Shown piece by piece: positions 6,581 to 35,752 of a stretch of 64,000 bases of DNA (its first letter is position 1; every line of letters starts with the position of its first letter). The notes under the pieces are model-generated. The model did no database searches. It saw only the letters and a list, made by a program, of their open reading frames with translations, and was not told the DNA's origin. The translations under genes and the position numbers were made by a program. The stretch lies in NCBI GenBank assembly GCA_045118335.1, contig JBGUXY010000053.1, positions 19,365 to 83,364 on the forward strand. Direction: 5' to 3'. The DNA comes from Eggerthellaceae bacterium. GTDB taxonomy: Bacteria > Actinomycetota > Coriobacteriia > Coriobacteriales > Eggerthellaceae.

Positions 6581-6800
6581 TAAACGCTCCTTTGCTGCTG
6601 TTTGGCGTTTCATTCTATCAGGGCAGTGGCGCCAGTCGTTATGCCAATTATCGGCATTGCGTTACGCCTAGAACCGATAGCCAACTATCAGTTGCCATAA
6701 AATGGGTATCCCTTGTTGTGGCTCGAGAAAAATGTGACTTTGAAACAGCAGGGAATAGATGCATACTGTTCTACGATTGCATCTTTTAAGGAGGTATCTC

Positions 6801-7613
6801 ATGGAGTCGTCGTGCACCTGTCCAAGCTGCGGGAAGATCGTGCAACAGCAAGCCTTGTTCTGTCCGAATTGTGGTGCAAGCATTGCGCCAGGTTCACCTG
6901 TGGCCAGCGATGGCCCTAGCGCCATTCCCCAGCCGACCACAGACGTTGTTGAAAAGGCAGCTCAAAACGTATCGGCAACTCAGAACGCTGCTGGCGAAGC
7001 GATGCCGATTGAAACTTGGCCACCCCAGGCGCAGCAGCCGATGCAGGCTCCTGTTATCGACCAGACGCGGGTCGCGCAAGCGCCTCAACCTTATCCCTAT
7101 GCGCCCGCGCAGCCAACCGGGCAGTTTGGCGCTTCAAGCGCTCCCGCGCCGATAGACAAGTACAAGACGCTGGGAGGGTGGTTGCTGGTATTCGTCATCT
7201 TGAACATCATCGATGCGCTCAGCGGTTTTGGACAACTTGTCCAAAGCTTGTCGGCGGGGATGGGCCCAAACGTCTTTTTCGTCCTCGTTATGCTCGTCGA
7301 AATAGCCTTTGATGTGGTGTTCGTGGTCTTCATCGTCGGCCGCAACGTCAACGTGCTAAGGCTCTTCCAGGCTGGAAAGGTAATTATCGGCGTTTTGCAG
7401 GCAATCATGAATCTAACCGCCATACCAGAGGCTATGTACTATGGAAGCCGAGCCATGCTGGGTGGGATCATCGCCCAAACCGCTGGCACCCTGGTTGGCG
7501 CTGGGGTGGGTCTGGTTCTTCTGACGATGTATTTCTGCAAGTCGGTGCGAGTACGTACGTACATGGGGTCCACCGAATACCAGGACAGGGCTTTCTTCCG
7601 CATCGGCGTATGA
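6801..7613 (+). CDS. Zinc-ribbon N-terminus plus multi-pass membrane protein, unknown function
   Basis: Track ORF 6759..7613. ATG 6801 sits behind AAGGAGG. MESSCTCPSCGKIVQQQALFCPNCG (CxxC..CxxC) is followed by a P/Q/A-rich linker and several hydrophobic helices. Confidence 0.6.
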   Translation: MESSCTCPSCGKIVQQQALFCPNCGASIAPGSPVASDGPSAIPQPTTDVVEKAAQNVSATQNAAGEAMPIETWPPQAQQPMQAPVIDQTRVAQAPQPYPYAPAQPTGQFGASSAPAPIDKYKTLGGWLLVFVILNIIDALSGFGQLVQSLSAGMGPNVFFVLVMLVEIAFDVVFVVFIVGRNVNVLRLFQAGKVIIGVLQAIMNLTAIPEAMYYGSRAMLGGIIAQTAGTLVGAGVGLVLLTMYFCKSVRVRTYMGSTEYQDRAFFRIGV

Positions 7614-10360: not shown

Positions 10361-10438
10361 AGGGCTTGTTACGTGGTTCAAGAATGCTGCTATGATAATT
10401 GCAGTGGAATGTGCGTTCGCTGAGAGATGGGTGTTTTC

Positions 10439-11770
10439 ATGGGTCATAGCGCTGAGCTTCGTGTGTACAAATGTCCCGCGTGTGGCGGTGCGGTGTCGTA
10501 TGATGCTGCGTCGGAGAAGTTAGCGTGCCGTTGGTGTGGCAACGATTTCGATGCGGAGGGGCTTGAAGCTACGGTCGTGTCGGGTGGTTTGAACGGATAC
10601 CTGTGTCCAGAATGCGGTGCGGAGCTCATGTCGGACGATTTCATCGCTGCGACAACCTGCCCGTATTGTGGCAGCAATCAGGTTGCACCCCATCGGTTCG
10701 AAGGCGATTTCAAGCCAGATGGGATCATTCCCTTTTCCATCACCCGCACGCAGGCGCTGAAAAACTATGAACAGACCCTGGCGGAAAAGGAGCTTCTGCC
10801 CGACGACTTTGCGACCAGATCGAGCATAGCCTCGGTGCAGGGCGTGTACGTGCCTTACTGGCTCTTTTCCGGAACGGTTGACTTCGATTTCACGTTTTAC
10901 TGGACAGACAACAGGAAAGACAGCGACTTGTGGGGCTACAAGCGTCGTGTGGGCACATACGAATACACTCAGGTTCCCGCCGATGGGTCCAGGCGCATGC
11001 CCGATGACATGATGGATTCCGTGGAGCCCTTCCAGTTCGATGCCCTCGTGCCGTTTTCGGACGAATACCTGCCCGGTTTCGTGGCGGAGCGCTACACGAT
11101 GGAGCCCGATGCCGTGCGCGAACGCGCCGACCTGCGTGCTAAGAACACGTCTGTGAGAGCCGTGAAAGAGACGCTGGATCTTGATTCGTGGCACTCGAAA
11201 CTCCTCGAGCAGAAGCGGTCGTCCGCCGTTGCGACGTGCGATGGCATCGAGCAGGCGCTGTTGCCCGTGTGGCTCATCGTCGTGCGATATCGCGACCAGA
11301 GCATCCTCGTGGGCGTGAACGGGCAAACGGGCAAAGTCGCCGCAAACCTGCCGATTGACGAGCAGAAGCAAAAGCGCCACCTGCACAAGAAAGGCCGGTT
11401 CGATTTCTGGATGATGTTCATCATCGCTGCAATTATAGGCTTCGGAGGAGCGTTCATCGTCGGCCTCGACCTTCGGGGTGACGTATGGATGTATGGCATG
11501 GAGGAGATAAGAACCAACCCGAGCCTTCATCGCGATTTCATCTTGTCAATCCTGAAGATAACCGGTCTGGTTCTGCTCCCGTTTGTGGCGGGCGCCTTCA
11601 ACCTGCTTGTCTATCGTCCGATTTACAAGGCCAAGATGACTAACTCGATGCAGAACGTGCGCGAAGCTCAGAACGCCGAGGCTTATGGTCGTGGTGCTTT
11701 GAACTTGACGCTGGAAGAATCGAAGAAGGGTCCCATCAGGGACGAAAACAACTGGCCTCCATTGGAATAG
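10439..11770 (+). CDS. Zinc-ribbon-rich, C-terminally membrane-anchored protein, unknown function
   Basis: Track ORF 10427..11770. There are four CxxC knuckles in the first 80 aa (CPACGG, CRWCGN, CPECGA, CPYCGS), then a large soluble domain and hydrophobic helices near the C-terminus (FWMMFIIAAIIGFGGAFIVGL, ITGLVLLPFVAGAFNLLVY). Confidence 0.65.
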   Translation: MGHSAELRVYKCPACGGAVSYDAASEKLACRWCGNDFDAEGLEATVVSGGLNGYLCPECGAELMSDDFIAATTCPYCGSNQVAPHRFEGDFKPDGIIPFSITRTQALKNYEQTLAEKELLPDDFATRSSIASVQGVYVPYWLFSGTVDFDFTFYWTDNRKDSDLWGYKRRVGTYEYTQVPADGSRRMPDDMMDSVEPFQFDALVPFSDEYLPGFVAERYTMEPDAVRERADLRAKNTSVRAVKETLDLDSWHSKLLEQKRSSAVATCDGIEQALLPVWLIVVRYRDQSILVGVNGQTGKVAANLPIDEQKQKRHLHKKGRFDFWMMFIIAAIIGFGGAFIVGLDLRGDVWMYGMEEIRTNPSLHRDFILSILKITGLVLLPFVAGAFNLLVYRPIYKAKMTNSMQNVREAQNAEAYGRGALNLTLEESKKGPIRDENNWPPLE

Positions 11771-12023
11771 GCAAAACGCGCATTGCTGCGCTGGATGATT
11801 ACAACTGTATGGTGAGAAATAGGGGAGGGTTCAACTTATCAGTATCACCGTAATTCGTAGCGGGCTTCAAATGCAAAAGAGAAAAAGTACTCGTTCCCAT
11901 TTCTCGTCCGCAAATGCGAAAATGCACCCGCCCCGTTTCTCATGAGCGTGATATTGAAACGCCTCTTTCATTTCTTCGTATGGAATTGATAGGATGGAAA
12001 CGCCAGCAAGAGAGAGGATCGTC

Positions 12024-12242
12024 ATGTCTGTAGAGAAAGAGCCCCTGCGCAGCGAATTGCTCGAGTCCGTTTCGGGTGGTGCAGACGTTGAGCTTGCCGA
12101 CGATTATCAAAGCAAGTGTCCCAAGTGCGGGAGCACCAACGTAACGATGATTCGCGTTGAGCACGAGATCTCGTCTTATCTTGTCGCCGACTTCAAGTGC
12201 AATGTTTGCGGAACGTATTATATGGACATAATACCCAAGTAG
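12024..12242 (+). CDS. Small peptide: double-glycine leader plus CX2C-X23-CX2C zinc-ribbon-like core (paralog A)
   Basis: Track ORF 11994..12242. ATG 12024 lies 5 nt after GAGAGAGGA. Sequence MSVEKEPLRSELLESVSGG|ADVELADDYQSKCPKCGSTNVTMIRVEHEISSYLVADFKCNVCGTYYMDIIPK. The leader has L(-12), L(-7), V(-4) and GG(-2,-1). Confidence 0.6.
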   Translation: MSVEKEPLRSELLESVSGGADVELADDYQSKCPKCGSTNVTMIRVEHEISSYLVADFKCNVCGTYYMDIIPK

Positions 12243-12255
12243 CACGACAAGGTTT

Positions 12256-13101
12256 TCACTTATCGTTTTTCCAGCGTGCGTTGGGGATGCCATCTTGGCA
12301 GGGGACTCCCACCTGGCATTTGCCGCAACCATATCGGATTTTCCTGCTGCCGGTTTCGGCGATGCGGTTCTTCCCCACGTGAGGAACGCAAGTTTCGTGA
12401 TTCTTGCCCCCCTCTACGCCAAGGCTTGCGTCGATGGCTCCCACGGGACAGTTCCGCTCGCAGACGCCGCACATGATGCAATAGTCAAACGGACCGTTGT
12501 AGTCATGCGGCGTGGGTTCGAAGACGGCGTCGGTGATGACGCTGCCGAACCGCCCAGCCATGCCCTTGCGCGTGATAAGTCCGCGTGAGAGCCCGAACGT
12601 TCCCAGGCCACAAGCGTATGCCACGTGCCGTTCGGACCAGTTGGAAAGGAATGGCCCGAGACGTTTGAACCGTGGGCCGGCAGCAGCATAGACGGCTTGA
12701 TGCCCCGCATCTTTTATCAGACTTTCGAGGTGCTTGCCGAATGCCGCGACCATGTCCTGACCTTCGATACGGGCATGCAGCCACTCGTCGGAAGGCTCGA
12801 TCGGGTCTTGTTGGTTCGAGCGTTTCACCTGGTCGTCGAATGCCATGAAAAACGAGATCACGCTCTTTGCTTCAGGAATCCAATCGGAGGGCAGAAGCGT
12901 TTCAGGTCCTACGACGTAGGGGCGTCTGAACAGCTCGAAATCGGGCGAGTCGGCTTGGGCAACACCGAAAATCGCACTGTCGAAAAGGCGCAAGCCGGCT
13001 AGGCTGGGCCTGATGGCATCTTCGGCGGTAATGTAGTTCAGGGGCTCTTGTTGCAGATAGTCGTTCATCCGAGTAGACAGCTCGGATATGCTCATTGCCA
13101 T
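12256..13101 (-). CDS. 4Fe-4S cluster protein, epoxyqueuosine-reductase / reductive-dehalogenase-like
   Basis: CIMCGVCERNCPVGAI (CxxCxxCxxxCP) plus a second Cys group CGKCQVGVPC. The N-terminal part resembles QueG-type proteins, and the exact function is not resolved. Confidence 0.65.
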   Translation of the reverse strand: MAMSISELSTRMNDYLQQEPLNYITAEDAIRPSLAGLRLFDSAIFGVAQADSPDFELFRRPYVVGPETLLPSDWIPEAKSVISFFMAFDDQVKRSNQQDPIEPSDEWLHARIEGQDMVAAFGKHLESLIKDAGHQAVYAAAGPRFKRLGPFLSNWSERHVAYACGLGTFGLSRGLITRKGMAGRFGSVITDAVFEPTPHDYNGPFDYCIMCGVCERNCPVGAIDASLGVEGGKNHETCVPHVGKNRIAETGSRKIRYGCGKCQVGVPCQDGIPNARWKNDK

Positions 13102-13278
13102 TGCAAGCGCCTTTCCCTCGACCTCTTCGGGTTCTTTGGCTCATTATAGTCTCATTTGCCGAAGCGCTTCTCGCGCTTCATGATATGGCATTCGCTCGCG
13201 GTTTGTTGTTGCTGGCATTATTTGGGGTAATGGTAAGATGGCAAACATGGTGCTTCAGTGCAGGGGTTGGTGAGCTTC

Positions 13279-13860
13279 ATGAGGCGGCAAACCGTCATTG
13301 GCATTATCAGCGATACACACGGCAGTCTTCCGAATGCCGTGCTCGATGTCTTCTCGGGCAGGCAGGACGGCGTGCAGGTGCTTGAAGAATGCTACGTTGA
13401 TGGAACTGGCGAAGATGTGCCCGCCCCCCGCGTGGTGGACTGCATCGTCCACGCGGGGGATATCGGCGAGCTTGCACCGATATCCCAGGGTGTTCTCGAC
13501 GCTTTGCAGGCAATTGCGCCTGTGCATGTCGTACGGGGAAACCGCGACGTTGCGGGTTACGTTGCAGGAGGAGAACCCGTTTCCGAACAGCTGTGTGCAT
13601 TCGAATCGTGCGGAATCGAAATAGCCGTCATGCACAAACCAGAAGACTTAAGGGCGGCGCTCGAGTGTGCGAGCACGAAGCCTCGCGTGCAGATCCACGG
13701 GCACACACATGTGCCGAAGGTTCGCAGGATAGGCAATCGCTTGCTGCTGTGTCCAGGCGCCATATCCAGGCCAAAAGGCGATTGGCCCTGCCGTAGCGTG
13801 GCGTTGCTCTACCTAGAAGAACCAGGCAAGCTCATTGGCGCGCAGATTCTGAAGGTCTAG
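13279..13860 (+). CDS. YfcE/MJ0936-family metallophosphoesterase
   Basis: Track ORF 13258..13860. Motifs: IISDTHG, VHAGDIG, VRGNRD, HGHTH. Confidence 0.8.
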   Translation: MRRQTVIGIISDTHGSLPNAVLDVFSGRQDGVQVLEECYVDGTGEDVPAPRVVDCIVHAGDIGELAPISQGVLDALQAIAPVHVVRGNRDVAGYVAGGEPVSEQLCAFESCGIEIAVMHKPEDLRAALECASTKPRVQIHGHTHVPKVRRIGNRLLLCPGAISRPKGDWPCRSVALLYLEEPGKLIGAQILKV

Positions 13861-13900
13861 ATATCGAGGGCTGTCCGCATGTTTGGGAGATAAGGCCTAT

Positions 13901-14251
13901 CTAGAGAAGGGAGTCTCCCCATTCTTTTTCGCGGAAACCCACGAGAACCGTGTTCTCGAGCACGAGCAATGGGCGCTTCACGAGCATCCCGTTGCTGGCG
14001 AGCAGCTCGAACATCTCGTCTTCGTTCATGTTGGGGAGCTTGTCTTTCAGGTGCATGTCGCGATACAGCATGCCCGACGTGTTGAAGAACCGCTTCAGCG
14101 GAAGTCCGCTGAGCTCATGCCATGCCCGCAGTTCGTCTGCGTTGGGATTGTTATCCACGATGTGCCGTCCTTCGAACGCGATATCGTGGTCGGCCAGCCA
14201 TTTTGCAGCTTTCTTGCATGTGGTGCATTTAGGATAGTGTACGAACAGCAC
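13901..14251 (-). CDS. ArsC/Spx/MgsR-family (YffB-like) thioredoxin-fold protein
   Basis: MLFVHYPKCTTCKKAAKWLADHDIAFEGRHIVDNNP ... LASNGMLVKRPLLV is characteristic of the family. Confidence 0.8.
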   Translation of the reverse strand: MLFVHYPKCTTCKKAAKWLADHDIAFEGRHIVDNNPNADELRAWHELSGLPLKRFFNTSGMLYRDMHLKDKLPNMNEDEMFELLASNGMLVKRPLLVLENTVLVGFREKEWGDSLL

Positions 14252-14395
14252 GTCAACCTCCTTGAGGGGAAACGCAAAGGACTACGTCCACGGTAGCACA
14301 CTCTCGAAGCGCACAACTCGACGACGTAGGGTCAGTGTGCAAAACGCTTCCAGCAGGAGCGATGCATCAATATCTGGCAGATTGGCCGTTTTCCC

Positions 14396-15157
14396 CTATC
14401 GCGTTTGGATGTAGGGTATGTAGAATGCTTGCCAATCGTCGAGGCGCAGGATTCCCAAGTTAAAGCCATAGACGCAACCGCAGTCTATGCAGTGCTTATG
14501 ACCCCAGTGCATCATGTGTGCCCGACGTCCTTCTTCCAAGACCTCGTCGGGGCAAGTGTAGGTAGGCAGGTGCTCGCATAGCGCAAAGGTGGGAGTATGT
14601 CCCGAGACCACGTGAAAGGGCGGATCTGCGGATAGCCGGTACCACCCGACACCGATCCAGAGCAGGTCCTGCTCTGCTTGAACGAGCCATGCGTCTGGTT
14701 CGCAGCCGGGTTCGGCTGGTCGCATGCCGGCATGGCTCATGAACACGAACTCGTCTTCCATTTGCACGCCAAGTGCCTTTGGGGCATGTCTGACAATATG
14801 CTGGAACGCATCGACAACTGCAGGGTCGAGCTTGCGCATCTGACCGAGGGTCTTTCTGCCTCCATTTTGCTTCCAATCGTTGACGCAAGCTTCATCGAAG
14901 CGAAAATCCGACCAAGCACCCAAAAGCGACCAATCGGCCAATTCCTCGTGGTTGCCCATGACGAAGTGGATGTTCGAGCCTGGCCCGTTCGCGTCGTTTT
15001 GCACCAGCCACTCGATGCAGGCGCCTATCTGCGGTCCTCGGTCGATGATGTCGCCCAAGATGAAGAGCTGGTCGGCGTCGCCAAACTCCACCATGCGCAA
15101 AGCCGCTTGGAATTCGTCGAAACAACCGTGGATGTCGGATATGGCAAAAACGCTCAT
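14396..15157 (-). CDS. Ser/Thr-phosphatase-type metallophosphoesterase (ApaH/PrpE-like)
   Basis: Motifs: AISDIHG, ILGDIIDRG, GNHE, SGHT. Confidence 0.8.
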   Translation of the reverse strand: MSVFAISDIHGCFDEFQAALRMVEFGDADQLFILGDIIDRGPQIGACIEWLVQNDANGPGSNIHFVMGNHEELADWSLLGAWSDFRFDEACVNDWKQNGGRKTLGQMRKLDPAVVDAFQHIVRHAPKALGVQMEDEFVFMSHAGMRPAEPGCEPDAWLVQAEQDLLWIGVGWYRLSADPPFHVVSGHTPTFALCEHLPTYTCPDEVLEEGRRAHMMHWGHKHCIDCGCVYGFNLGILRLDDWQAFYIPYIQTR

Positions 15158-15177
15158 GCGGGACTGTCGCTTTGAGC

Positions 15178-15801
15178 CTAGAAACCGCAGCAGGTGATGC
15201 CGTACGTGTCGTTGATGGTTTCGTATGCATCTGCAGCATCGGTGACTACGCCTGTTACGGGGGCGGGTTGCCCGGCGGCATCGCTGGTGAGCTTGCTCAG
15301 CGTAATGATCGTGCCGGTTTCGAGTCCTTCCAGGTTAACGATGCCGTCTTGAACAAGGCTTTCCGAAAGAGCCGTCAAATCTCCGTCGGCGCGATCGCGT
15401 GCCGGTTCGTACACGTATACCGTTGCATCCATTTCAGAGGCGGCCTTCTGGGCTTCGGCGATGATGGCGGCAGAAGCCTCGTCGGAAGCATCGGCTATCA
15501 CAACGGCTGCTTGAGCCTTGTTCTGGGCAATCCATACGAGCTGGTCGTATCCGATCAGGTCCAGGTTGTCGCCGTTTTCCAAGCCATAGGTTTCCGCCAG
15601 ATAAGCGCCCTCGTCAATGCCGAAGTCGACCTCGGGCATTTCGGAAGAAGGCGTTTGCGCATCGCCGGCAGCTGCCGTATCCGAATCGGCTGTTGTGGAT
15701 GCGGCCTCGTCAAGCACGTCGGCTGCCTGCTCGCTTGCCTGCGAGCAGCCCATAAGCAAACCTATTGCCACAATGCAAAAAACAATCGCGAATCTCTTCA
15801 T
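15178..15801 (-). CDS. Putative lipoprotein, unknown function
   Basis: Signal peptide with lipobox MKRFAIVFCIVAIGLLMGC, followed by an acidic low-complexity mature part. Confidence 0.7.
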   Translation of the reverse strand: MKRFAIVFCIVAIGLLMGCSQASEQAADVLDEAASTTADSDTAAAGDAQTPSSEMPEVDFGIDEGAYLAETYGLENGDNLDLIGYDQLVWIAQNKAQAAVVIADASDEASAAIIAEAQKAASEMDATVYVYEPARDRADGDLTALSESLVQDGIVNLEGLETGTIITLSKLTSDAAGQPAPVTGVVTDAADAYETINDTYGITCCGF

Positions 15802-19240: not shown

Positions 19241-19502
19241 CATGTGAAAGCCATAGTAAGGGGCAGTCCCTTCTCATAACCTAGATTTTAAGATTATTGG
19301 CTGCTGCCAGGTGTTTGCAGCTCTGTCGCTATCTGATGGTACCCGAAGTGCACAAGTACGCACAGAAAGAGGGACTGAACGATTATGCAGAGTTTTAAAC
19401 TACGCTTTCGTTTTCTTCCAGGGTGCAACTGCTTCAGTTATTTTGGCACGAAGCGCTTGTTCCCCGAAACGGTTTCGCATGATGTTCGTAAGATTAGACG
19501 AG

Positions 19503-19516
19503 GGATCGTACGATCC
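19503..19516 (+). promoter_or_regulatory. Perfect 14-bp palindrome in the leader of peptide paralog B
   Basis: GGATCGTACGATCC, 34 nt upstream of ATG 19550. It could be an operator or an RNA hairpin. Confidence 0.3.
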
Positions 19517-19549
19517 TCCGTGACAAAGCCATCAAAAAGGAGCGTGACC

Positions 19550-19774
19550 ATGGATCTTCAGGACAACGCCAAGAAGCTATCAACCGACGATCTTCAGCAG
19601 GTTTCCGGGGGTGCCGGTGAGCATCTCGGTTCCGGCAAGTTCTACCCACCCTGCCCAGAATGCGAATGCACTGATGTGTTCTGTATCACTAACTGGTTTG
19701 ATGGTGACGGTCATCTCTACTATGAATTGCATTGCAACGTTTGCTACAACGAATGGGTATGGCAGGAATACTAA
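19550..19774 (+). CDS. Small peptide: double-glycine leader plus CX2C-X23-CX2C zinc-ribbon-like core (paralog B)
   Basis: Track ORF 19385..19774. ATG 19550 lies 7 nt after AAAGGAG. Sequence MDLQDNAKKLSTDDLQQVSGG|AGEHLGSGKFYPPCPECECTDVFCITNWFDGDGHLYYELHCNVCYNEWVWQEY. The leader has L(-12) S(-11) D(-8) L(-7) V(-4) GG. Confidence 0.6.
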   Translation: MDLQDNAKKLSTDDLQQVSGGAGEHLGSGKFYPPCPECECTDVFCITNWFDGDGHLYYELHCNVCYNEWVWQEY

Positions 19775-21826: not shown

Positions 21827-22516
21827 ATGCCCTACCGTATTCTCGTCGCAGACGACGAAAAGGACATTCGCAGCGTGTTGGCGCTGTATCTGGAAAACGC
21901 CGGTTACGAAGTGGTGGAGGCGGAAGACGGAGAGCAGACGCTGCGGGTCTTGAGTTCTCAGCCCATCGACTTGTGCCTGCTCGACATCATGATGCCCAAG
22001 CTCGATGGCTACCAGGTGCTCAAACAGGTGCGCCAAGTAAACGACGTGCCGGTGATAGTCATATCCGCCAAGGGCCAAGACCCCGAAAAGATCTTGGGTT
22101 TGAACCTGGGGGCCGACGACTACATGGTGAAGCCCTTCAATCCCCTGGAAGCAGTTGCACGCGTGAATTCCAATATCCGGCGCGCGAAGGGCATGGTACC
22201 CCAGCAGCGGCGACGCTCCATGCCCGCATTGCGCTGCCGTGATTTGGAGCTCGATATCGAATCGTGCACGCTCACTCGCGCAGGGTCCGACATCGACCTC
22301 ACGCCGGTGGAATACCGCATCATGGCGATGCTCATGGAGCATCCGGGCCGCGTGTTCACCAAGCAGCAGATATACGAATGCGGTTGGGAAGAAGACTACA
22401 TTGCCGCCGAGAACAGCGTGATGGTGTGCCTTAGCAAGCTGCGCGCGAAGCTCGGCGACGAACCGCAAGCCTACATCAAGACGATTCGTGGATTGGGCTA
22501 TAGGCTGGAGAGATAA
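21827..22516 (+). CDS. OmpR/PhoB-family response regulator
   Basis: Receiver domain (ILVADDE ... LLDIMMPKLDG ... VIVISAK) plus a winged-helix output (YIKTIRGLGYRL). Confidence 0.9.
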   Translation: MPYRILVADDEKDIRSVLALYLENAGYEVVEAEDGEQTLRVLSSQPIDLCLLDIMMPKLDGYQVLKQVRQVNDVPVIVISAKGQDPEKILGLNLGADDYMVKPFNPLEAVARVNSNIRRAKGMVPQQRRRSMPALRCRDLELDIESCTLTRAGSDIDLTPVEYRIMAMLMEHPGRVFTKQQIYECGWEEDYIAAENSVMVCLSKLRAKLGDEPQAYIKTIRGLGYRLER

Positions 22517-23661
22517 TGGGCAGGCGCACGGATAGGGAAAAGAAAAAGAGCAAGAAAAAGAGGAGAGCTTCCGAAAACCCCTTCGAGAAGAACAGCCTGG
22601 TTTTTTACCTGGTGAGCCGCTTCATCGTGGTGCTCATCTTGGTCATGGCTGCCGAGTCGGCGGTGGTGTGGCTGGAAAGCTCTCTGTTTCGGCCTGCTCT
22701 AGAGCCCTTCGTCGACGGATATGTGGCATCCTCGCTGCAGACGACGTCGGTCGCGGGGCTTGTACGTTGGATGGTTTCCTTGCTCGGGACTATGATTCAG
22801 GCGGGAAACGCCCAGTTCATGGGTCTGGCACGGGAATCGTTCGTGCTGTTGCTGATCGTGGCGATGCTGCTGATGCTGCTGGCTCCGCTGCTCGTTGGGG
22901 CATTGGTGTTTGCTTTGGCAATCGTGCGCAAGGTGCGAGTTTTGCAGAAGCGTCGCGAGGAGGAAATCGCGCGGGTCAATCGTCAGCGCAGCCAGTTCAT
23001 CACCGATGTCGCGCATGATTTGCGCACCCCCATCATGGCTGTTTCCGGCATGGCGCATGCGCTTTCCGATGGCCTGGTCCAAGATTGCGCCATGCAAGAG
23101 GAATACCTGCGTTCCATATGCGATAAGACCGACAAGCTAGGTGAGCTCGTCTCGTCGGTGTTCGATTACGCGAAGCTGGGTAGCGTTGGCTTCAGCCTTC
23201 AGCGCGAGATGCTGAACTTGCCAGAGCTTCTCTTGCGCGAGGCGGCCGTTGCCTATACCGATGCCGAGGAAGCTGGCATCGAGCTTTCGGTTCACGTTCC
23301 CGAAGACCGCTGCACGGTGAATGCCGACCCCGTGCAGCTAAGCCGCGTGGTGGCGAACCTGCTTTCCAATGCCATCAGGCACAACGAGGCGGGAACGGAA
23401 GTAGCGTTGATGACGGTCCGCCAGGCGGGCATGGTTTACGTGGTCGTGGCAGATGCGGGTGCGATGCTAACCGAAGACCCCGACGACCTGTTCCAGCCGT
23501 TTACACGCGGCGACACTTCGCGCTCCGATGCGGGCGGCAGTGGTCTGGGCCTTTCCATCTGCAAGCGTGTGGCAGACATGCACGGTTTCGGGCTCACCCT
23601 TGTGCAGCCCTACGGCCGCTTCCCGAAGGCGTTCGTGCTTCAGTGTCCCGTGGAGAACTGA
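22516..23661 (+). CDS. Sensor histidine kinase (two TM helices, HisKA + HATPase)
   Basis: H-box FITDVAHDLRTP, N-box LLSNAIRHN, G-box GGSGLGLSI. The start overlaps the regulator stop by 1 nt. Confidence 0.85.
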   Translation: MGRRTDREKKKSKKKRRASENPFEKNSLVFYLVSRFIVVLILVMAAESAVVWLESSLFRPALEPFVDGYVASSLQTTSVAGLVRWMVSLLGTMIQAGNAQFMGLARESFVLLLIVAMLLMLLAPLLVGALVFALAIVRKVRVLQKRREEEIARVNRQRSQFITDVAHDLRTPIMAVSGMAHALSDGLVQDCAMQEEYLRSICDKTDKLGELVSSVFDYAKLGSVGFSLQREMLNLPELLLREAAVAYTDAEEAGIELSVHVPEDRCTVNADPVQLSRVVANLLSNAIRHNEAGTEVALMTVRQAGMVYVVVADAGAMLTEDPDDLFQPFTRGDTSRSDAGGSGLGLSICKRVADMHGFGLTLVQPYGRFPKAFVLQCPVEN

Positions 23662-23738
23662 CGGCCGTCCATGGTGGTTATCGCAAGTTTCCGTCGCGCT
23701 TTTAAGGATGCGCAACCCGACGATAAGGAGCGCAATCT

Positions 23739-24311
23739 ATGAACGACTATTCCGAACAGCTTAGGCAAATCGCGACAGGGCACGCGTTGCTTGCTGCGTG
23801 CGCCGCGCTATACCTTATCTGGTGGTGCGTTTTCTTTCGTCCGCGCGCTCAATCGCCACAGGGAATCGAATACGTTTTGGGCGTCGCGTTCATTTTGGGC
23901 GCAGTGGCGCTTGGCGCAATTGCCGTGGCGAAAACCGTCCAGGCGGTGGGCGCACTGCCATCGGCCATCCCGGGCTTTGCTGTCGTCGTTGTGGCAATGG
24001 TGTTGTATGTCGTGCTGCTGATTGCTACTACCACGATCTTCGACCGGCCCGTGACAACGGAGCTTTTGCTGATCGTAGCTTGGCTGGCGTTGGAGGCTTT
24101 CGTGTTGTCGGCCCTTGTCGCAACGGGCATGCCTGCCGGCATGGTGACATTATGCGTCTTGCTCGTTGCGGCGGCTTTCGTTGCGAGCATGGTTTGCTAC
24201 GTGCTGTATTACAAGCTTTCGGGAACTGCGGCCTTTCTTGATGGATGCGGGCCGCTGGTTGCGGTGGGCATCCTAAGCACGCTGTTCGCCCTGCTCCTTC
24301 GCCTGCAATAG
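23739..24311 (+). CDS. Multi-pass membrane protein, unknown function
   Basis: AAGGAG lies 8 nt upstream. There are five or six hydrophobic helices. Confidence 0.65.
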   Translation: MNDYSEQLRQIATGHALLAACAALYLIWWCVFFRPRAQSPQGIEYVLGVAFILGAVALGAIAVAKTVQAVGALPSAIPGFAVVVVAMVLYVVLLIATTTIFDRPVTTELLLIVAWLALEAFVLSALVATGMPAGMVTLCVLLVAAAFVASMVCYVLYYKLSGTAAFLDGCGPLVAVGILSTLFALLLRLQ

Positions 24312-24419
24312 GAGGCTTCCCGATCTAGCAGGCGTCTATTCCAAGCAGGGGCCAATTTGGCGCCCCCCTTTGCAAGAGAAGACGGTTCCGGTATTGCAGA
24401 GGAGCGTCTTTACCGGGGC

Positions 24420-26219
24420 CTATTCCAGGTAGGCGCCGGTTTGGCGGTTCCACAGGTGTGCGTACTCACCGCCGGCTTCGATAAGCTGGGCGTGCGGTCC
24501 GTCTTCGACCACCTTGCCGTTTTCCAGCACCACGATGCGGTCCAGGCTTGCAACGGTGGACAGGCGGTGTGCCACGACGATGGATGTGCGTCCGGCCATG
24601 AGCTTCGCCAACGCGTCTTGCACCAAGTGCTCGCTTTCGGAATCGAGCGCGCTCGTTGCCTCGTCGAGCACGAGGATGGGGCAGTTGGCCAACATGGCAC
24701 GCGCAATGGCGATGCGTTGGCGTTGCCCGCCCGAGAGCTTGATGCCACGCTCGCCCGTGACGGTCTGGAAGCCCTGCGGCAGCTTCTCGATGAACTCGAG
24801 CGCGTTTGCCTGTTCGGCCGCGGTACGGATTTCCTCCATCGTTGCATTGGGCTTGCCATAGCTGATGTTTTCCGCGATGGTGCGGTGGAACAGCAGCGCC
24901 TCTTGCGGCACATAGGCGATATTGCGTCGCAGGCTTTGTTGCGTACAATCGGCGACGTTTTGACCATCTACCAGGATCTGGCCTTCCTGAATGTCGCTCA
25001 GGCGGAGCAAAAGCTTTGTGAGCGTGGTTTTCCCCGCGCCGCTCATACCCACGAGTCCAATGCGCTGACCTGCAGGAATGTGCAGATCGAAGCCTTCGAA
25101 CACGCGGGTGAGCGCACCGCCGTCAACATAGGAGAAGCCGATGTCCACAAAGTCGATGTCGCCGCGGATCACCTGCATGTCGGGAGCGCCGGGCGCATCT
25201 GCTACCAGGCGGGGCTCGTCGAGTATCTCGGTCATGCCGCTCGCATCACCGAATGCGCGGTTCAGCCGCTGAAGGCCGGCGTTGATGAAGTTAAACTGGT
25301 TCGTGACGCTGTAGGTGTAGGTGAACATCATCACCAGCGTACCGGGGGTTATGCCAAACCATGCATTACCGCCCGAGATGAACACTGCTACGACACTCAT
25401 GATCACGAGTGCGATGCAGGCTGTCACGATACCGCGCATGAGGCTTGCCATCATGCGTTTGCTGTCGCGGGCGACAACCTCTCGATTGGCGGCATCGAAC
25501 AGGTCGCGCTCGTAATCCTCGCGGCCATAGGTTTTCACGGAAAGGATGTTGGCAACGCTGTCGGAAAGCTCGCCGGATAGGTTGTTTTGCGCGCTTGCTG
25601 CCTGCTCGTTGAGGTTGAGGATGCGCTTGTACATGCGGTAGCTCACAAACGCGTATATGGCCAACATGAACATGAGGATAACGGTGTAGAGTGGCACGCG
25701 CGGCCCCAGTAGCAGGCAGATGAACACGATAGCTTCGATAAGCGGCAGCACTGGCCAGGTAATCACCTCTATGAGCTGGTTGTACGCGTTCATGTATTTG
25801 CTTGTCTGGCTCACGAGCGTTCCGCCGAAGCGATTCGAATGGAAGCTCATCGACTGGTTGCACAGCGCGTCGAACGCTTGCGTGGCCAAGTCGTAGTTCA
25901 CGGCGATTTCCAGCTTCCACAGCGTGTAGTCCTGTAGCTTGCTGAAGCCCTGTCCGAACAGGTTGATAAGAACAAGCGCCAAGATGTACGGTCCGAACAC
26001 GGGGAATACTTGGTCGGCCGATACCGGGTCGGCCGCCACGCGGTCGACGATCAGGCTCATCATGAAGGGGTTGGCATAGGTGAGCAAAAAGCCGAATCCG
26101 ATGGTGGCAAGAACGAGTGTCACGAAATAGCCCATGTGGTTTTTGGTTGCCTGCCAATAAAAGTGTATGGTTCGCCGTGCGGTGGAAGGCATTGCTGGTT
26201 TCTTGGCGGTGCTTGTCAT
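24420..26219 (-). CDS. ABC exporter, fused permease + ATPase (MsbA/ABCB-like)
   Basis: Track ORF 24420..26456. Probable start is ATG 26219 (MTSTAKKPAMP...). Six TM helices, Walker A GMSGAGKTT, signature LSGGQRQR, Walker B ILVLDEATS. No C39 peptidase domain. Confidence 0.9.
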   Translation of the reverse strand: MTSTAKKPAMPSTARRTIHFYWQATKNHMGYFVTLVLATIGFGFLLTYANPFMMSLIVDRVAADPVSADQVFPVFGPYILALVLINLFGQGFSKLQDYTLWKLEIAVNYDLATQAFDALCNQSMSFHSNRFGGTLVSQTSKYMNAYNQLIEVITWPVLPLIEAIVFICLLLGPRVPLYTVILMFMLAIYAFVSYRMYKRILNLNEQAASAQNNLSGELSDSVANILSVKTYGREDYERDLFDAANREVVARDSKRMMASLMRGIVTACIALVIMSVVAVFISGGNAWFGITPGTLVMMFTYTYSVTNQFNFINAGLQRLNRAFGDASGMTEILDEPRLVADAPGAPDMQVIRGDIDFVDIGFSYVDGGALTRVFEGFDLHIPAGQRIGLVGMSGAGKTTLTKLLLRLSDIQEGQILVDGQNVADCTQQSLRRNIAYVPQEALLFHRTIAENISYGKPNATMEEIRTAAEQANALEFIEKLPQGFQTVTGERGIKLSGGQRQRIAIARAMLANCPILVLDEATSALDSESEHLVQDALAKLMAGRTSIVVAHRLSTVASLDRIVVLENGKVVEDGPHAQLIEAGGEYAHLWNRQTGAYLE

Positions 26220-26393
26220 GTGCGTTCCTGTTCGTAGTGCTAAGTTCCGTTCAATACGATACCACAGCCGTTTCCTGTGATGATGGGGTGCTGCAATGGT
26301 GGATTCTCTGTCGATTTGTTGTCGAGAAACACCCAAATGAGCGACAAAAAGCGCCAATGAGTTGCTTATTCTACTATACGGTGAAAATGAGTA

Positions 26394-26422
26394 TTGACGC
26401 TCGCGATAACCAATCCTATCTT
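26394..26422 (+). promoter_or_regulatory. Candidate promoter for the YkvI-TetR fusion gene
   Basis: TTGACG (26394-26399), a 17-nt spacer, then TATCTT (26417-26422). Confidence 0.3.
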
Positions 26423-26478
26423 CCACGATATTCATTATTTGAGTTGGTTTCTGCAACTAGGAAAGGAGTGCGCTGACG

Positions 26479-32608: not shown

Positions 32609-33802
32609 ATGGATTCGACCGCTCGTCTGACGCGCGGATGCGTGTTGTGCTCGCTTGTCCTCTTTTTCGTGATGCTGTCTGCAGGCTGGATGGCGATGCC
32701 TGCGGTTGCCTGGGCGGAAGAGGGCGTGTTCGGCGAGCAAGATGGTGAAGTCGACAACGACACGGCGGGCAACGTGGTCATGGCGGGCAATTCCGTAAGC
32801 GTTACGCACGATGTGCAACGCGATGCCATGCTGGCAGGACGCGAGGTCAAAGTTGCCGACGTATCGGTTGCCGGTGACGTTCTTGCTGCAGGACAAACCG
32901 TGCGCGTGGCGGATTCTCGGATAGCTGGCAACGTTCGTGCAGCGGGGGATGCTTTGGTCGTCGAGAGCGTGGACGTTGCAGGTAACGTGACCGCCTGCGG
33001 GAACAGCGTTGAAATCGGGGGCGATTCGAAAGCGGCGTCGATATACGCTTTTGGCAGCTACCTCGCTTATGAAGGAACGGCGCAATACGTTGCGCTTTCG
33101 GGGCAGCAGGTGCAATTCGATGGCGAAGTCGACGGAGATGTGCATATCGATGCGAGTTCGGTTGCGATTGGCGAAAACGCGCGGGTGACGGGCACGCTTA
33201 CCGTGGAGGGGGCGCAGCCCGATGTCGCCCCCGGTGCCCAGGTGGAGTCGATGAACGTGCAGGCTGCCGATGAGGGAAGCGTTGCGCAGAGCTTCCTTGC
33301 CTCTTTGGTCAACGCCATCGTGCTTCTTTTCACCTTGATAGCCACCATCGCGGTCATCTGGTGGATAGCTCCTGGCGCAGCGCAGGATTCCCTGTTCATG
33401 TTCCGGGCGCGTACCGCACCCATGATTGTGACCGGTGTGGTGGCTTTGCTGGCAATGCCGTTCGCGATAGCCGTCTTGCTGGCAAGCGGAATCGGCATGC
33501 TGTTGGCGATCGTGCTCATATGCCTGGTTGTAGTTATGGCCGTGTTGGGGATGCCCTTCATGTGCGCTGCCATATCGCGACGCATCATGCGCGGTTCTCG
33601 GGAATGGGTCGTTGTGGCAATGGCGGCAGCTATAGCAGGGTTCATGCTGAGCGTGCCCATTGCCAACATGCTTGGAATGCTGTGTGGCTGCGTGTACTTT
33701 GCGGGTTATGTGCTGCAGCTTCTTTTCCTCAAGATAAGCGCCAGGAGTGCCATGCGCTCTTCGAAAGCCAGCGCCGGAAACGAGCAGGCGGGCGAACGCT
33801 GA
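32609..33802 (+). CDS. Secreted repeat (beta-helix/bactofilin-like) domain plus C-terminal multi-TM domain, unknown function
   Basis: Signal peptide ending AVAWA|EE. Repeated V/A-G-D/N-V units (AGNVVMAGNSVSV, VAGDVLAAGQTVRV, IAGNVRAAGDALVV ...), then 4-5 TM helices. Confidence 0.55.
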   Translation: MDSTARLTRGCVLCSLVLFFVMLSAGWMAMPAVAWAEEGVFGEQDGEVDNDTAGNVVMAGNSVSVTHDVQRDAMLAGREVKVADVSVAGDVLAAGQTVRVADSRIAGNVRAAGDALVVESVDVAGNVTACGNSVEIGGDSKAASIYAFGSYLAYEGTAQYVALSGQQVQFDGEVDGDVHIDASSVAIGENARVTGTLTVEGAQPDVAPGAQVESMNVQAADEGSVAQSFLASLVNAIVLLFTLIATIAVIWWIAPGAAQDSLFMFRARTAPMIVTGVVALLAMPFAIAVLLASGIGMLLAIVLICLVVVMAVLGMPFMCAAISRRIMRGSREWVVVAMAAAIAGFMLSVPIANMLGMLCGCVYFAGYVLQLLFLKISARSAMRSSKASAGNEQAGER

Positions 33803-33881
33803 AAATAGTTGCGCAACGAGCTGCGCCGTCAAAGCGGTATCTTTTGGGCATAAGGAAGAGCTTGAACGAAAGAAGGCTTCA

Positions 33882-34724
33882 GTGTTTTGCCCGAAATGCG
33901 GAAAAGACCTGCTTGAAGATGCGAAGTTCTGCCCGAGATGCGGAGCCGGGATTGCGGAGTGCGATTTTGACAAGGCTCCCCATGCAATTGAAGGCCAACA
34001 ATCTGGGTATGCAGTGCAACCTTCAACGACATTGGGGGGCGGCCGGTTTGCCTATGCGGGTCAAGCTGGCGCACTTCGTCGGCAGGGGGCTTTCGCCGCA
34101 GCGGCGCCTGCTAACGTGCAGGTACCCAACGTCGCCAAGGTAGCGGCTCGCTCCAGCAGCGAACCTGTTGCTCGCCGGACGCCGAAGGCAACTGCATCCA
34201 CGAGCGTCTTCACCCCTGTTGGCATTGCAGCGCGCATTGCCACCGTGCTAACGGTTGTTCTCATGTTCATGCCGTGGCTGCGAGTGGACGTATTGGAAGA
34301 GCTGCAGGGATATGCGTCGCTTCTGGGTTACGACATTCCAGCAAAGACGAGCTTCACCATGCTCAATGTGGATGCCGTCACGAGCACGCTCGACCTGATT
34401 TCCTCTTCCGATTCCTACAGCGCGCTTCACGCAGTCTTCTATGGCTTCTGGATTGCCGCCCTGGTGCTCGCGGGCGCTGGTCTGGTGCTTTCCTTTACGG
34501 GCAGGAAATCCACGCGGATGCTCGTCCCCGGCGCCATCGCCGCAACGCTAGTGGCGCTGCTGTGGTTTGTCGCGATAACGAACCTTAATGCGCATTACGC
34601 CAGCCAAATGACTCAACTCATCGGTTTCGACACGCAGTTCTTCTCGCTGCCTTGGGCGGTTTGGGCTACGGCAGTCATGGGCATTGTCACGGCGGTGCTG
34701 GGTTTCGCCGGCAAACGCAGCTAG
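33882..34724 (+). CDS. Zinc-ribbon N-terminus plus membrane protein, unknown function
   Basis: Track ORF 33747..34724. GTG 33882 lies 5 nt after GAAAGAAGG. VFCPKCGKDLLEDAKFCPRCG is followed by a linker and 4-5 TM helices. Confidence 0.6.
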   Translation: MFCPKCGKDLLEDAKFCPRCGAGIAECDFDKAPHAIEGQQSGYAVQPSTTLGGGRFAYAGQAGALRRQGAFAAAAPANVQVPNVAKVAARSSSEPVARRTPKATASTSVFTPVGIAARIATVLTVVLMFMPWLRVDVLEELQGYASLLGYDIPAKTSFTMLNVDAVTSTLDLISSSDSYSALHAVFYGFWIAALVLAGAGLVLSFTGRKSTRMLVPGAIAATLVALLWFVAITNLNAHYASQMTQLIGFDTQFFSLPWAVWATAVMGIVTAVLGFAGKRS

Positions 34725-34816
34725 TGTGCTTGTCCATTGCGAGGCAGGTTGCGCTACAGATACCACAAAGATCGCTTTACGTTGATTTTGCTTGTCGCTA
34801 TACTGTGCTCATGAAT

Positions 34817-34972
34817 TCTGTTTCAGGGCGGGGTGAAAGTCCCCACTGGCGGTAATGCGAACGGCGTGGCCAAACCGCGCATCGCGAGTCCGCGACCCCC
34901 TGGTGTATTCCAGGGGCTGACTTGGGTGAGATTCCCAGACCAACGGTAACAGTCCGGATGGAAGAGGCAGAG
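34817..34972 (+). promoter_or_regulatory. FMN riboswitch (RFN element)
   Basis: Conserved RFN blocks TCAGGGCGGGGTGAAAGTCCCCACTGGCGGTAA, AGTCCGCGACC, GGTGTATTCCAGGGGCTGA and ACGGTAACAGTCCGGATGGAAGAGGCAG, directly upstream of a RibU-type gene. Confidence 0.85.
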
Positions 34973-35088
34973 TTTCCGCCCCAGGCGGCAAACCCTTAAC
35001 CTGTGCGAAAAGAATTCACGCTGGCAGCCGTGAGCCCGAGGTGCGGCATGCTGGGTTCTGCACGGCCTCGGGGGATGGAAGGTTTGTC

Positions 35089-35652
35089 ATGCCTGAAATG
35101 AAGAACACGAACAAATGGGATACTCGCACGTTGGTGACCATGGCGCTGCTAGCCGCCATCGGCATCCTGCTGAGCTTCATCGAGTTTCCCCTCTTCGCTG
35201 CCGCCCCGTTCCTGAAGCTGGATGTGTCTTTCGTGCCCAGCGCGGTGGTGGGCTTTGCCTACGGACCGGTTGCTGGCGTGATCGTTGGCATCATCGTGGC
35301 CGTGGCCCATGCGATGATCGATGGTAACTGGGTGGGCGCCATCATGAACACGATCATGGTGCTTTCCTTCGTGCTGCCGGCTGCGCTGGTGTACAAGTTC
35401 AACCGCACGCTGAAAGGCGCCATCATCGGCTTGGTGCTGGGCCTGGTCATCCAAACCGTCGTATCGGTTCCCGCCAACGTGCTCATCGATCCGCTCTACG
35501 GCGTGGACGCATCTATCGTCATGAGCCTGGCGGGCTGGATCGTGGCCTTCAACGTGGTGAAGGGCATTGTGAACTCTGTGCTCACCGGTGTGGTGTACAA
35601 GAGCATCTCGAATCTGATCACTCCCAAAAAGGACCAGGTCAAGGGCCGCTAA
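35089..35652 (+). CDS. ribU: ECF transporter S component, riboflavin (RibU-like)
   Basis: Track ORF 35041..35652. ATG 35089 follows GGAAGG. KWDTRTLVTMALLAAIGILLSFIEFPLF, six TM helices, FMN riboswitch upstream. Confidence 0.85.
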   Translation: MPEMKNTNKWDTRTLVTMALLAAIGILLSFIEFPLFAAAPFLKLDVSFVPSAVVGFAYGPVAGVIVGIIVAVAHAMIDGNWVGAIMNTIMVLSFVLPAALVYKFNRTLKGAIIGLVLGLVIQTVVSVPANVLIDPLYGVDASIVMSLAGWIVAFNVVKGIVNSVLTGVVYKSISNLITPKKDQVKGR

Positions 35653-35752
35653 CATCCACGAAAAGCACGCGTGCCAAAGGAGCGTGCCAATAATGGTCAG
35701 GCCAAACGTCTTGTGCGTTGGCCATCTTGCGGGGAAGAACGATTGCTGAAAT

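Follow-up and report, generated by a model that had tools for sequence, protein, structure and literature searches.

The 64,000-nucleotide stretch of contig JBGUXY010000053.1 from an Eggerthellaceae bacterium (assembly GCA_045118335.1), referred to below as the window, encodes two small peptides, A and B, in which an N-terminal double-glycine (GG) leader precedes a core that is predicted to fold as a zinc ribbon. Gene A is an open reading frame (ORF) on the forward strand (12024-12242). As described in the first-pass annotation of this DNA, its product of 72 residues consists of a GG leader of 19 residues, MSVEKEPLRSELLESVSGG (12024..12080, +), with predicted cleavage after G19, and a core of 53 residues, ADVELADDYQSKCPKCGSTNVTMIRVEHEISSYLVADFKCNVCGTYYMDIIPK, which together with the stop codon occupies 12081..12242 (+) and is predicted to be a C4 zinc-ribbon mini-domain. 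The CPKC-X23-CNVC pattern reported for this core is indeed present, with a first knuckle C32-P-K-C35 (12117..12128, +), 23 intervening residues and a second knuckle C59-N-V-C62 (12198..12209, +). The gene lies behind a spacer of 253 nt (11771-12023) with 46% GC, compared to 57.5% for the whole window, and has its own Shine-Dalgarno (SD) sequence, GAGAGAGGA, at 12010-12018, which ends 5 nt before the ATG; the annotated SD and lower-GC spacer are thereby both recovered.

An ortholog of peptide A with 75% identity (P0002) was found on three metagenome contigs (L001-L003). Since a longer in-frame alternative start at 11994 is not kept in this ortholog, in which it reads ATA and is accompanied by a 1-nt indel before 12024, the start of gene A was placed at 12024. 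Pairwise comparison of A with its ortholog gave a ratio of nonsynonymous to synonymous substitution rates (dN/dS) of 0.34 overall, 0.18 for the leader and 0.37 for the core. A promoter-like region with the 5' untranslated region (UTR) and the SD sequence extends over 11953..12023 (+) and is conserved on the three contigs; about 65-70 nt ahead of the ATG are nearly invariant, despite the divergence of the coding sequence to 75% amino acid identity. An extended -10-like element can be read from this sequence, TGATAGGAT, with TG at 11987-11988 and TAGGAT at 11990-11995, while a consensus scan upstream of gene A did not identify a canonical sigma-70 promoter. Folding of the 5' UTRs relative to shuffled sequences was not significant for A (z = 0.39) or for B (z = 0.78), and an Rfam scan of the window identified only an unrelated flavin mononucleotide (FMN) riboswitch and no RNA family at A or B. 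The upstream regions of A and B were found to share only 8-9-mers at chance level as candidate regulatory motifs; GAAACG is frequent throughout the window.

The second copy of the gene that had been announced for the window could be identified at 19550-19774 on the forward strand, encoding a peptide of 74 residues with 30% identity to A (tblastn E 1e-5). Peptide B has a GG leader of 21 residues, MDLQDNAKKLSTDDLQQVSGG, and a core of 53 residues, AGEHLGSGKFYPPCPECECTDVFCITNWFDGDGHLYYELHCNVCYNEWVWQEY, which contains six cysteines; the ribbon ligands are C35/C38 and C62/C65, and 23 residues separate the two CxxC pairs in A as well as in B. The gene follows murB across a spacer of 366 nt with 48% GC, and has AGGAG 8 nt ahead of its ATG. 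Genes A and B themselves both have about 50% GC. A palindrome, GAGGGATCGTACGATCCTCC, with a CCUCC anti-SD-like string in its right arm, is located at 19502-19521, about 30 nt before the start of B, in the region whose folding score is given above.

A regular expression that combines a GG leader with CxxC...CxxC matches the window twice. Control loci of related as well as unrelated gut genomes (1.24 Mb) contain no match, nor do 200 versions of the window simulated with an order-2 Markov model (12.8 Mb). That gene A is a chance ORF or an annotation artefact in an intergenic spacer might be suggested by its small size, the lower GC content of the spacer, its absence at syntenic sites in related genomes and the lack of a canonical sigma-70 promoter in the scan. 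This explanation is effectively refuted and can be set aside with hardly any reservation, in view of the 75%-identical ortholog with its dN/dS value, conserved start and upstream region, the paralog in the window, the absence of motif matches in the controls, and the 61 family representatives and confident fold described below. Gene A is a genuine coding sequence under purifying selection.

The consensus of GG leaders, LSxxELxxIxGG, places glycines at -2/-1 and a hydrophobic residue at each of positions -4, -7 and -12 relative to the cleavage site. The residues that had been assigned to these positions in A are correct: L8 is at -12, L13 at -7 (with a further leucine at -8), V16 at -4 and G18/G19 at -2/-1. 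The leader of B reads LSTDDLQQVSGG and fits the pattern exactly; peptide B also passes the NCBIfam model TIGR01847 (bacteriocin_sig) with 16.4 bits at a cutoff of 15.7, and this model matches 12 of the 45 members of the family alignment discussed below at E <= 0.1. The leader is the best-conserved part of these two paralogs of 30% identity, with L8, L13, S17, G18 and G19 invariant in the alignment of A and B. The TIGR03798 model for Nif11 leaders matches neither A nor B, whose leaders measure 19 and 21 residues versus about 45-70 expected. Together with the leader swapping and the exporters next to homologs that are presented below, the conservation of the leader and the TIGR01847 score of B support the annotated role, i.e. 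that the A and B leaders represent true, modular export or processing leaders; export in this organism itself is presumed from sequence comparison.

The cores of A and B are predicted with confidence to be zinc ribbons of the TFIIS/NrdR class, in agreement with the TFIIS-like C4 ribbon first suggested for A. A profile of the 45-member family matched PDB sequences of RPC10 (E 1.8e-8), Thermococcus celer TFS/RPB9 (1qyp, 2.9e-6, core only), RPA12 (1e-5), RPB9 (about 1e-4) and TFIIS (1tfi, 5e-4). The leader part of the profile aligns to the inter-ribbon linker of RPC10 (5fj8_I), RKKLPRKEVDDVLGGG, just before the C-terminal ribbon. This alignment is probably coincidental but inflates the RPC10 E-value; the value for 1qyp (2.9e-6), which is matched by the core only, is less affected. 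The NCBIfam model TFS_arch matches 12 of the 45 members (best 1.7e-8), and A scores 15.2 bits on Pfam PF01096, below the gathering score of 21. The core would thus work like a classical zinc ribbon and is probably derived from one; under the curated threshold it falls outside PF01096.

Structure prediction with AlphaFold2 (AF2) gave a three-stranded antiparallel fold for A, with strands at residues 40-48, 52-59 and 65-71. In this model, for which the underlying alignment contains one out-of-frame row (paralog B), block-mean values of the predicted local distance difference test (pLDDT) are 85-88 for residues 31-70, 76 for the last two residues, and below 50 over most of the leader, which is predicted to be disordered. 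The model of B, with strands at 43-50, 56-62 and 68-73, reaches block-mean pLDDT values of 90-94 over residues 31-70 and of 86 over the final four. Foldseek comparison to PDB structures ranked NrdR zinc ribbons first for both peptides (A: 1.9 Å over 43 columns; B: the E. coli NrdR ribbon, 1.0 Å over 41 columns, 27% identity, E 3.7e-3), followed by the ribbons of TFIIS, A12.2 and Rpb9; the Foldseek E-values are weak, as expected with a domain of about 40 residues. The acidic (DE) hairpin of TFIIS is absent, and the corresponding loops, RVEHEISSY in A and NWFDGDGH in B, are not conserved across the family.

Homologs offer an indirect clue to the nature of the site formed by the four cysteines. 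Seven of the 15 cores in a tandem array at locus L094 have CxxH or HxxC at the first knuckle. A histidine can act as zinc ligand, and it is incapable of forming a disulfide or thioether; these Cys-to-His replacements thus favour a metal site over disulfide or thioether cross-links in the cores. The array itself (L094, 50-5736) consists of 15 genes with Nif11 leaders and hypervariable cores, and one copy (1943-2125) ends right after the GG.

When A and B served as queries in word-indexed homology searches, only near-identical copies came up; the wider family surfaced solely in an exhaustive search of 1.84 billion representative sequences (E <= 1e-3), with a profile built from A, B and two of their close relatives. 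This search retrieved 61 cluster representatives, most of them 60-110 residues long and aligning end to end, from gut and rumen anaerobes. The common architecture comprises a leader, a linker of 5-15 residues, the motif CP.CGS[T/S][N/D]V, a variable stretch of about 20 residues, and C[N/K].CG..[W/F]. In the 45-member alignment G18/G19, C32, C59 and C62 (numbering of A) are invariant, and P33 and C35 are conserved in at least 90% of the members. The leader has either a short form, ...L[S/P]DEEL.QVSGG, or a long Nif11-like form (e.g. MNLEDIIKKLSPELQEKAKACKSPEELIALGREHAAELTPEALEAIAGG), and one and the same core type occurs behind both, i.e. the leader is modular. Some ribbons lack a leader or occur in tandem, with four in P0019, three in P0085 and P0091, and two in P0054; further examples are P0039, P0056 and P0068. 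One of these, the leaderless protein P0091 (155 residues, three tandem ribbons), is encoded at L006-L008 after YbjQ_1, downstream of smpB and near an ArdC-like anti-restriction gene and small ORFs, in a region that looks like an integrated mobile element.

Gene A thus has a 75%-identical ortholog and belongs to a family of 61 representatives; the 26 syntenic Eggerthellaceae loci examined contain no copy. Scans of genome and metagenome contigs with an alignment of B-type peptides yielded pattern matches, none of which could be confirmed. The corresponding metagenome scan for the Nif11-leader subgroup confirmed more than 326 loci, of which 80, mostly from the rumen, were kept for analysis. These 80 loci contain 171 precursor-like ORFs, 162 of them with CxxC...CxxC. 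All 162 ribbon-type cores have a cysteine at most four residues after the GG, often as C-x-S/T. Such a cysteine is absent from A, of which the core starts with ADVE, and from B, which starts with AGEH. The Nif11-leader relatives score 16-23 bits on TIGR03798 (cutoff 32.3).

The gene neighbourhood of the homologs connects the family to peptide exporters. At loci L009 and L096, three to six ribbon paralogs with Nif11 leaders flank a gene for an HlyD-like protein of 130 residues, a gene for a protein of 723 residues with Peptidase_C39, ABC_membrane and ABC_tran domains, and a gene for a second ABC protein of 727 residues; on the longer contig of L009 the cassette is followed by STAS and anti-sigma-kinase genes. 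On TIGR03796 (cutoff 853.3) the C39-ABC protein of L009 reaches 816.9 bits, and on TIGR03797 (cutoff 709.4) its second ABC protein reaches 658.6 bits. These genes represent the export cassette that Haft et al. 2010 (PMC2887384) defined as NHLP/N11P. Exporters of the C39-ABC type are also found beside homologs at loci L115, L116 and L177. Among the loci of at least 5 kb, the exporter adjoins the precursors in only 2 of 27, and the short-leader relatives at L004 and L091 are orphans as well. Most precursors are therefore dispersed from their exporter, and the orphan placement of A and B is the norm for the family. Two arrays of short GG leaders (L179, 1474-3474, and L178, 26-3391) contain single-ribbon peptides, a double-ribbon peptide of 111 residues and unrelated cysteine-free cargo behind GG leaders, which suggests that they are mixed-cargo islands serving one exporter.

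Clustering of neighbouring genes identified a second arrangement in two rumen clusters, located at 3140-13515 of L115 and 7156-17489 of L177. The gene order is five to eight ribbon precursors with Nif11 leaders, a protein of 400 residues, a protein with Radical_SAM and SPASM domains (radical S-adenosylmethionine, rSAM), the HlyD-like protein of 130 residues, and a peptidase-containing ATP-binding cassette transporter (PCAT) of the C39-ABC type. L177 has the same order as L115 up to the PCAT, after which the L115 contig ends within the start of a second ABC gene. The protein of 400 residues has no Pfam or NCBIfam match, and the rSAM/SPASM protein (461-465 residues) has no NCBIfam equivalog. Partial clusters with an rSAM gene are found at L105, L099 and L146. 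Part of the family is thus probably post-translationally modified.

These clusters raise the question whether A and B are precursors of RiPPs (ribosomally synthesized peptides that are modified post-translationally), in which the four cysteines would be the substrates of an rSAM/SPASM or other maturase encoded elsewhere in the genome, forming thioether-type links as in sactipeptides or ranthipeptides before cleavage at the GG and export. Besides the position of the rSAM/SPASM protein and the 400-residue protein between precursors and exporter, complete at L115 and L177 and partial at L105, L099 and L146, the NCBIfam family TIGR04165 ('Cys-rich peptide') argues for this possibility, as it matches 28 of the 45 members below threshold (best 1.2e-7). 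We take TIGR04165 to be a methanogen family encoded beside a radical SAM enzyme, of which it is the predicted target. Several observations on A and B point in the other direction. The window contains no homolog of the clustered rSAM/SPASM protein or of the 400-residue protein (best tblastn E 0.9). Moreover, A and B lack both the Nif11-like portion of the leader that such maturases would be expected to bind and the cysteine close to the GG, the more obvious modification site, that is present in 162 of 162 ribbon cores with Nif11 leaders from the rumen loci. Finally, the Cys-to-His replacements, the CPxCG knuckles and the confident ribbon models fit a metal site better than thioethers. We consider modification of A and B unlikely on balance. 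Because they have no Nif11 part in the leader, no cysteine after the GG and no nearby rSAM gene, the copies in the window represent a stripped-down version of the family and would probably be exported without radical-SAM modification.

We propose that A, and also B, gives rise to a mini-protein whose leader directs its export and which acts extracellularly as a ribbon stabilised by Zn(II), and regard this as the reasonably probable explanation of the data. The N-terminal leader of 19 residues would be recognised by the C39 cysteine-peptidase domain of a PCAT encoded outside the window, which would cleave after G19 and export the core of 53 residues. This core would then fold as a three-stranded Cys4 ribbon of the TFIIS/NrdR class, most likely around one Zn(II), and present its hypervariable loop and tail outside the producer as an inter-bacterial effector, which may be a signal or an antagonist similar to bacteriocins. 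That this organism cleaves and exports the peptide, the occupancy by zinc and the biological target are what we infer here.

A number of observations weigh against this proposal. No C39 peptidase domain was found by tblastn within the 64-kb window, in which the sole ABC exporter (24420-26456, -; 678 residues) has ABC_membrane and ABC_tran domains without C39 according to Pfam. Peptide A itself has no match to TIGR01847 at E <= 1 (cutoff 15.7 bits). The predicted mature peptides are anionic (A: net charge -3, isoelectric point (pI) 4.70, grand average of hydropathy -0.15; B: net charge -8, pI 4.24), unlike classic cationic class II bacteriocins. Conservation of A and B by synteny had to be rejected, as neither is present in any of 80 glnA3 loci. 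The presence of rSAM/SPASM genes in the complete clusters of Nif11-type relatives makes cysteine modification possible for the family. PCATs reportedly thread unfolded cargo, as seen in structures of PCAT1, so that a site for zinc could not form until the peptide has been exported. Finally, zinc ribbons are normally found inside the cell, in the cytoplasm. Next to A, no gene for a small membrane protein, as a candidate for immunity, is co-oriented; the downstream gene is convergent.

Several of these points would fit a small zinc-ribbon protein that stays uncleaved in the cytoplasm, for instance as a regulator or as a binder of nucleic acid or RNA polymerase in the manner of other ribbons that stand alone, its resemblance to GG leaders being without function. 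NrdR and TFIIS/Rpb9, whose solved folds are nearest, work inside the cell; the ribbon also occurs in leaderless and in tandem form, and the window lacks a C39 exporter. The leader is nevertheless the best-conserved part of the peptide, whether A is compared with B or with its ortholog; that of B fits LSxxELxxIxGG exactly and passes TIGR01847, and in homologs the ribbon is fused to Nif11-type leaders and encoded beside PCATs. In addition, hypervariable arrays of paralogs are typical of secreted effectors and not of housekeeping ribbons. A cytoplasmic role consequently appears improbable to us, slightly more so than modification as a RiPP, and an exported, Zn(II)-stabilised ribbon is preferred.

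A more far-reaching and tentative view, which we would rather doubt than adopt, is that A and B represent a new class of unmodified metallopeptides ('zinc-ribbon bacteriocins' or signals), exported by means of their leader and built on a hypervariable Zn(II)-ribbon scaffold that gut anaerobes use outside the cell. An intracellular fold that binds polymerase or nucleic acid could have been the origin of this scaffold. Bolder still, such a ribbon, once taken up, could act on a partner inside the victim cell, e.g. the secondary channel of RNA polymerase, in which TFIIS-type ribbons bind in archaea and eukaryotes.

Gene A is flanked by the genes that had been noted before. Downstream, across a gap of 13 nt, lies a convergent gene for a protein of 281 residues (12256-13101, -) with a Pfam Fer4 match (24.8 bits, cutoff 21.1) and weak QueG/RDH-like matches. 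Upstream, a protein of 447 residues with several CxxC pairs (10427-11770) is encoded, for which the DZR model stays below threshold (23.1 versus 27.3 bits), in line with the multi-zinc-ribbon neighbour of the annotation. Both genes were considered as functional partners of A and rejected, as the ortholog on L001-L003 has an NfeD-like gene downstream.

The type III glutamine synthetase encoded nearby (glnA3) is 82% identical to that of one metagenome-assembled genome (MAG) of the Eggerthellaceae and 65-71% identical to those of many others. Loci around glnA3 from 80 genomes, including 26 Eggerthellaceae, served for the synteny comparison, in which the absence of B is based on a regular-expression scan and a hidden Markov model search. 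Two contigs in this comparison, L017 (CAVAPV010000012.1, Agathobacter rectalis) and L021 (CAVCDT010000017.1, Akkermansia muciniphila), have glnA3 genes with 69-70% identity, as in true Eggerthellaceae MAGs, and are likely mis-binned. The distance from rpsI to glnA3 is 6 kb here, compared to 1.3-4.3 kb in relatives that keep rplM-rpsI upstream of glnA3. This block (about 10427-15801) encodes the zinc-ribbon membrane protein, peptide A, the Fer4 protein, two metallophosphoesterases, an ArsC-family protein and a lipoprotein-like ORF, none of which has a counterpart in the 26 Eggerthellaceae loci, and forms a variable island beside genes for ribosomal proteins. The absence of A and B from the loci of relatives indicates that these genes are lineage-specific and located in variable DNA.

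Further features of the window were noted. At 2-5 kb downstream of B (21827-26456) lie two-component genes, with a probable OmpR-type response regulator (21827-22516, by sequence reading) and a histidine kinase (22516-23661, HisKA and HATPase_c), followed by an ORF of 190 residues without assigned function and the divergent ABC exporter mentioned above; no link of these genes to the peptides was shown. At least two further proteins begin with zinc-ribbon motifs, that encoded at 6759-7613 (+; Zn_Ribbon_1, 27.6 bits) and the upstream neighbour of A (10427-11770, +; DZR, sub-threshold as given above), and a third, long open frame at about 33737-34720 (+) has CPKCG and CPRCG at 33828-33947. Beyond the knuckles, these three proteins have no sequence relation to the peptide family. 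The FMN riboswitch (Rfam RF00050, 95.7 bits; 34815-34973, +) precedes an ORF at 35041-35652, which is followed by an ORF of 625 residues with two ABC ATPase domains (35753-37630) and one at 37590-38423; the region 34815-38423 is presumably a riboflavin energy-coupling factor (ECF) transporter locus.

The initial impression that the peptides do not belong to a described family is supported by the database and literature searches. No model for such peptides in Pfam, NCBIfam, PHROG or PADLOC passes its threshold: all zinc-ribbon matches of A in Pfam and NCBIfam are sub-threshold, and PHROGs and PADLOC gave only weak matches to unnamed phage ribbons and no defence family. Exact-term searches of open-access full text found no relevant paper that pairs a GG or Nif11 leader, PCAT, bacteriocin or RiPP with a zinc ribbon or CxxC, and no description of the rumen cluster with Nif11 precursors and radical SAM/SPASM protein. 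The nearest curated concept is TIGR04165, below threshold. Leader-directed, PCAT-exported peptides are known as such, and it is the type of cargo, a zinc ribbon, that is new.

Double-glycine and Nif11 leaders tag short peptides for cleavage and export, and their cargo usually owes its activity to amphipathicity or to cross-links made by enzymes. In the present case the cargo is predicted to be a complete, independently folding zinc-ribbon domain, with hundreds of hypervariable copies in gut and rumen anaerobes. If it is indeed exported and stabilised by metal, a metal-dependent scaffold would be added to the repertoire of secreted bacterial effectors, a compact and evolvable display scaffold with a defined leader would become available for engineering, and the question would arise which partner is bound by a secreted TFIIS/NrdR-like ribbon. 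The clusters with the unclassified radical SAM/SPASM protein and the 400-residue protein represent an uncharacterised pathway of the RiPP type.

Peptides A and B can be compared with four known systems. They resemble the GG-leader substrates of PCATs, i.e. class II bacteriocins and pheromones (processed by Peptidase_C39, PF03412), in the pattern of the leader, with B passing TIGR01847, and in the occurrence of homologs beside C39-ABC exporters and in multi-copy arrays. They differ from these substrates in their cargo, which is a Cys4 zinc ribbon and not an amphipathic, Gly-rich or cationic peptide (pI 4.7 and 4.2), and in that the copies in the window have no adjoining exporter or immunity gene.

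The Nif11/NHLP systems for RiPPs, including prochlorosin-like libraries (TIGR03794, TIGR03796, TIGR03797; PMC2887384), share with the relatives of A and B the Nif11-like leaders, the hypervariable arrays that are mostly located away from the exporter and, in complete clusters, the cassette of ABC1 (C39), ABC2 and HlyD-like proteins, with scores just under the equivalog cutoffs. In contrast to these systems, the leader of A and B is limited to the short portion next to the GG, a folded ribbon is predicted for the core instead of a low-complexity peptide rich in Cys, Ser and Thr, and the enzyme encoded in the clusters of relatives is an unclassified rSAM/SPASM protein and not a LanM or cyclodehydratase.

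With the ribbons of TFIIS, TFS, Rpb9 and RPC10 (PF01096) and of NrdR, the peptides have in common the CxxC-x23-CxxC spacing, an aromatic residue before the third cysteine, 'CG.xW' after it, and the three-stranded sheet. The ribbon of A and B differs in its partner, which is a leader for secretion or processing where the others have a domain that binds polymerase or an ATP-cone domain, and in its hypervariable loop and tail; the acidic DE hairpin is also absent, and A alone scores below the cutoff of PF01096. Finally, the TIGR04165 peptides resemble A and B in their size of about 50 residues, in their two CxxC pairs, and in the association of part of each family with radical SAM proteins. To our knowledge they have no GG leader; they also occur in different taxa, and A reaches only 24 bits on this model at a cutoff of 60.

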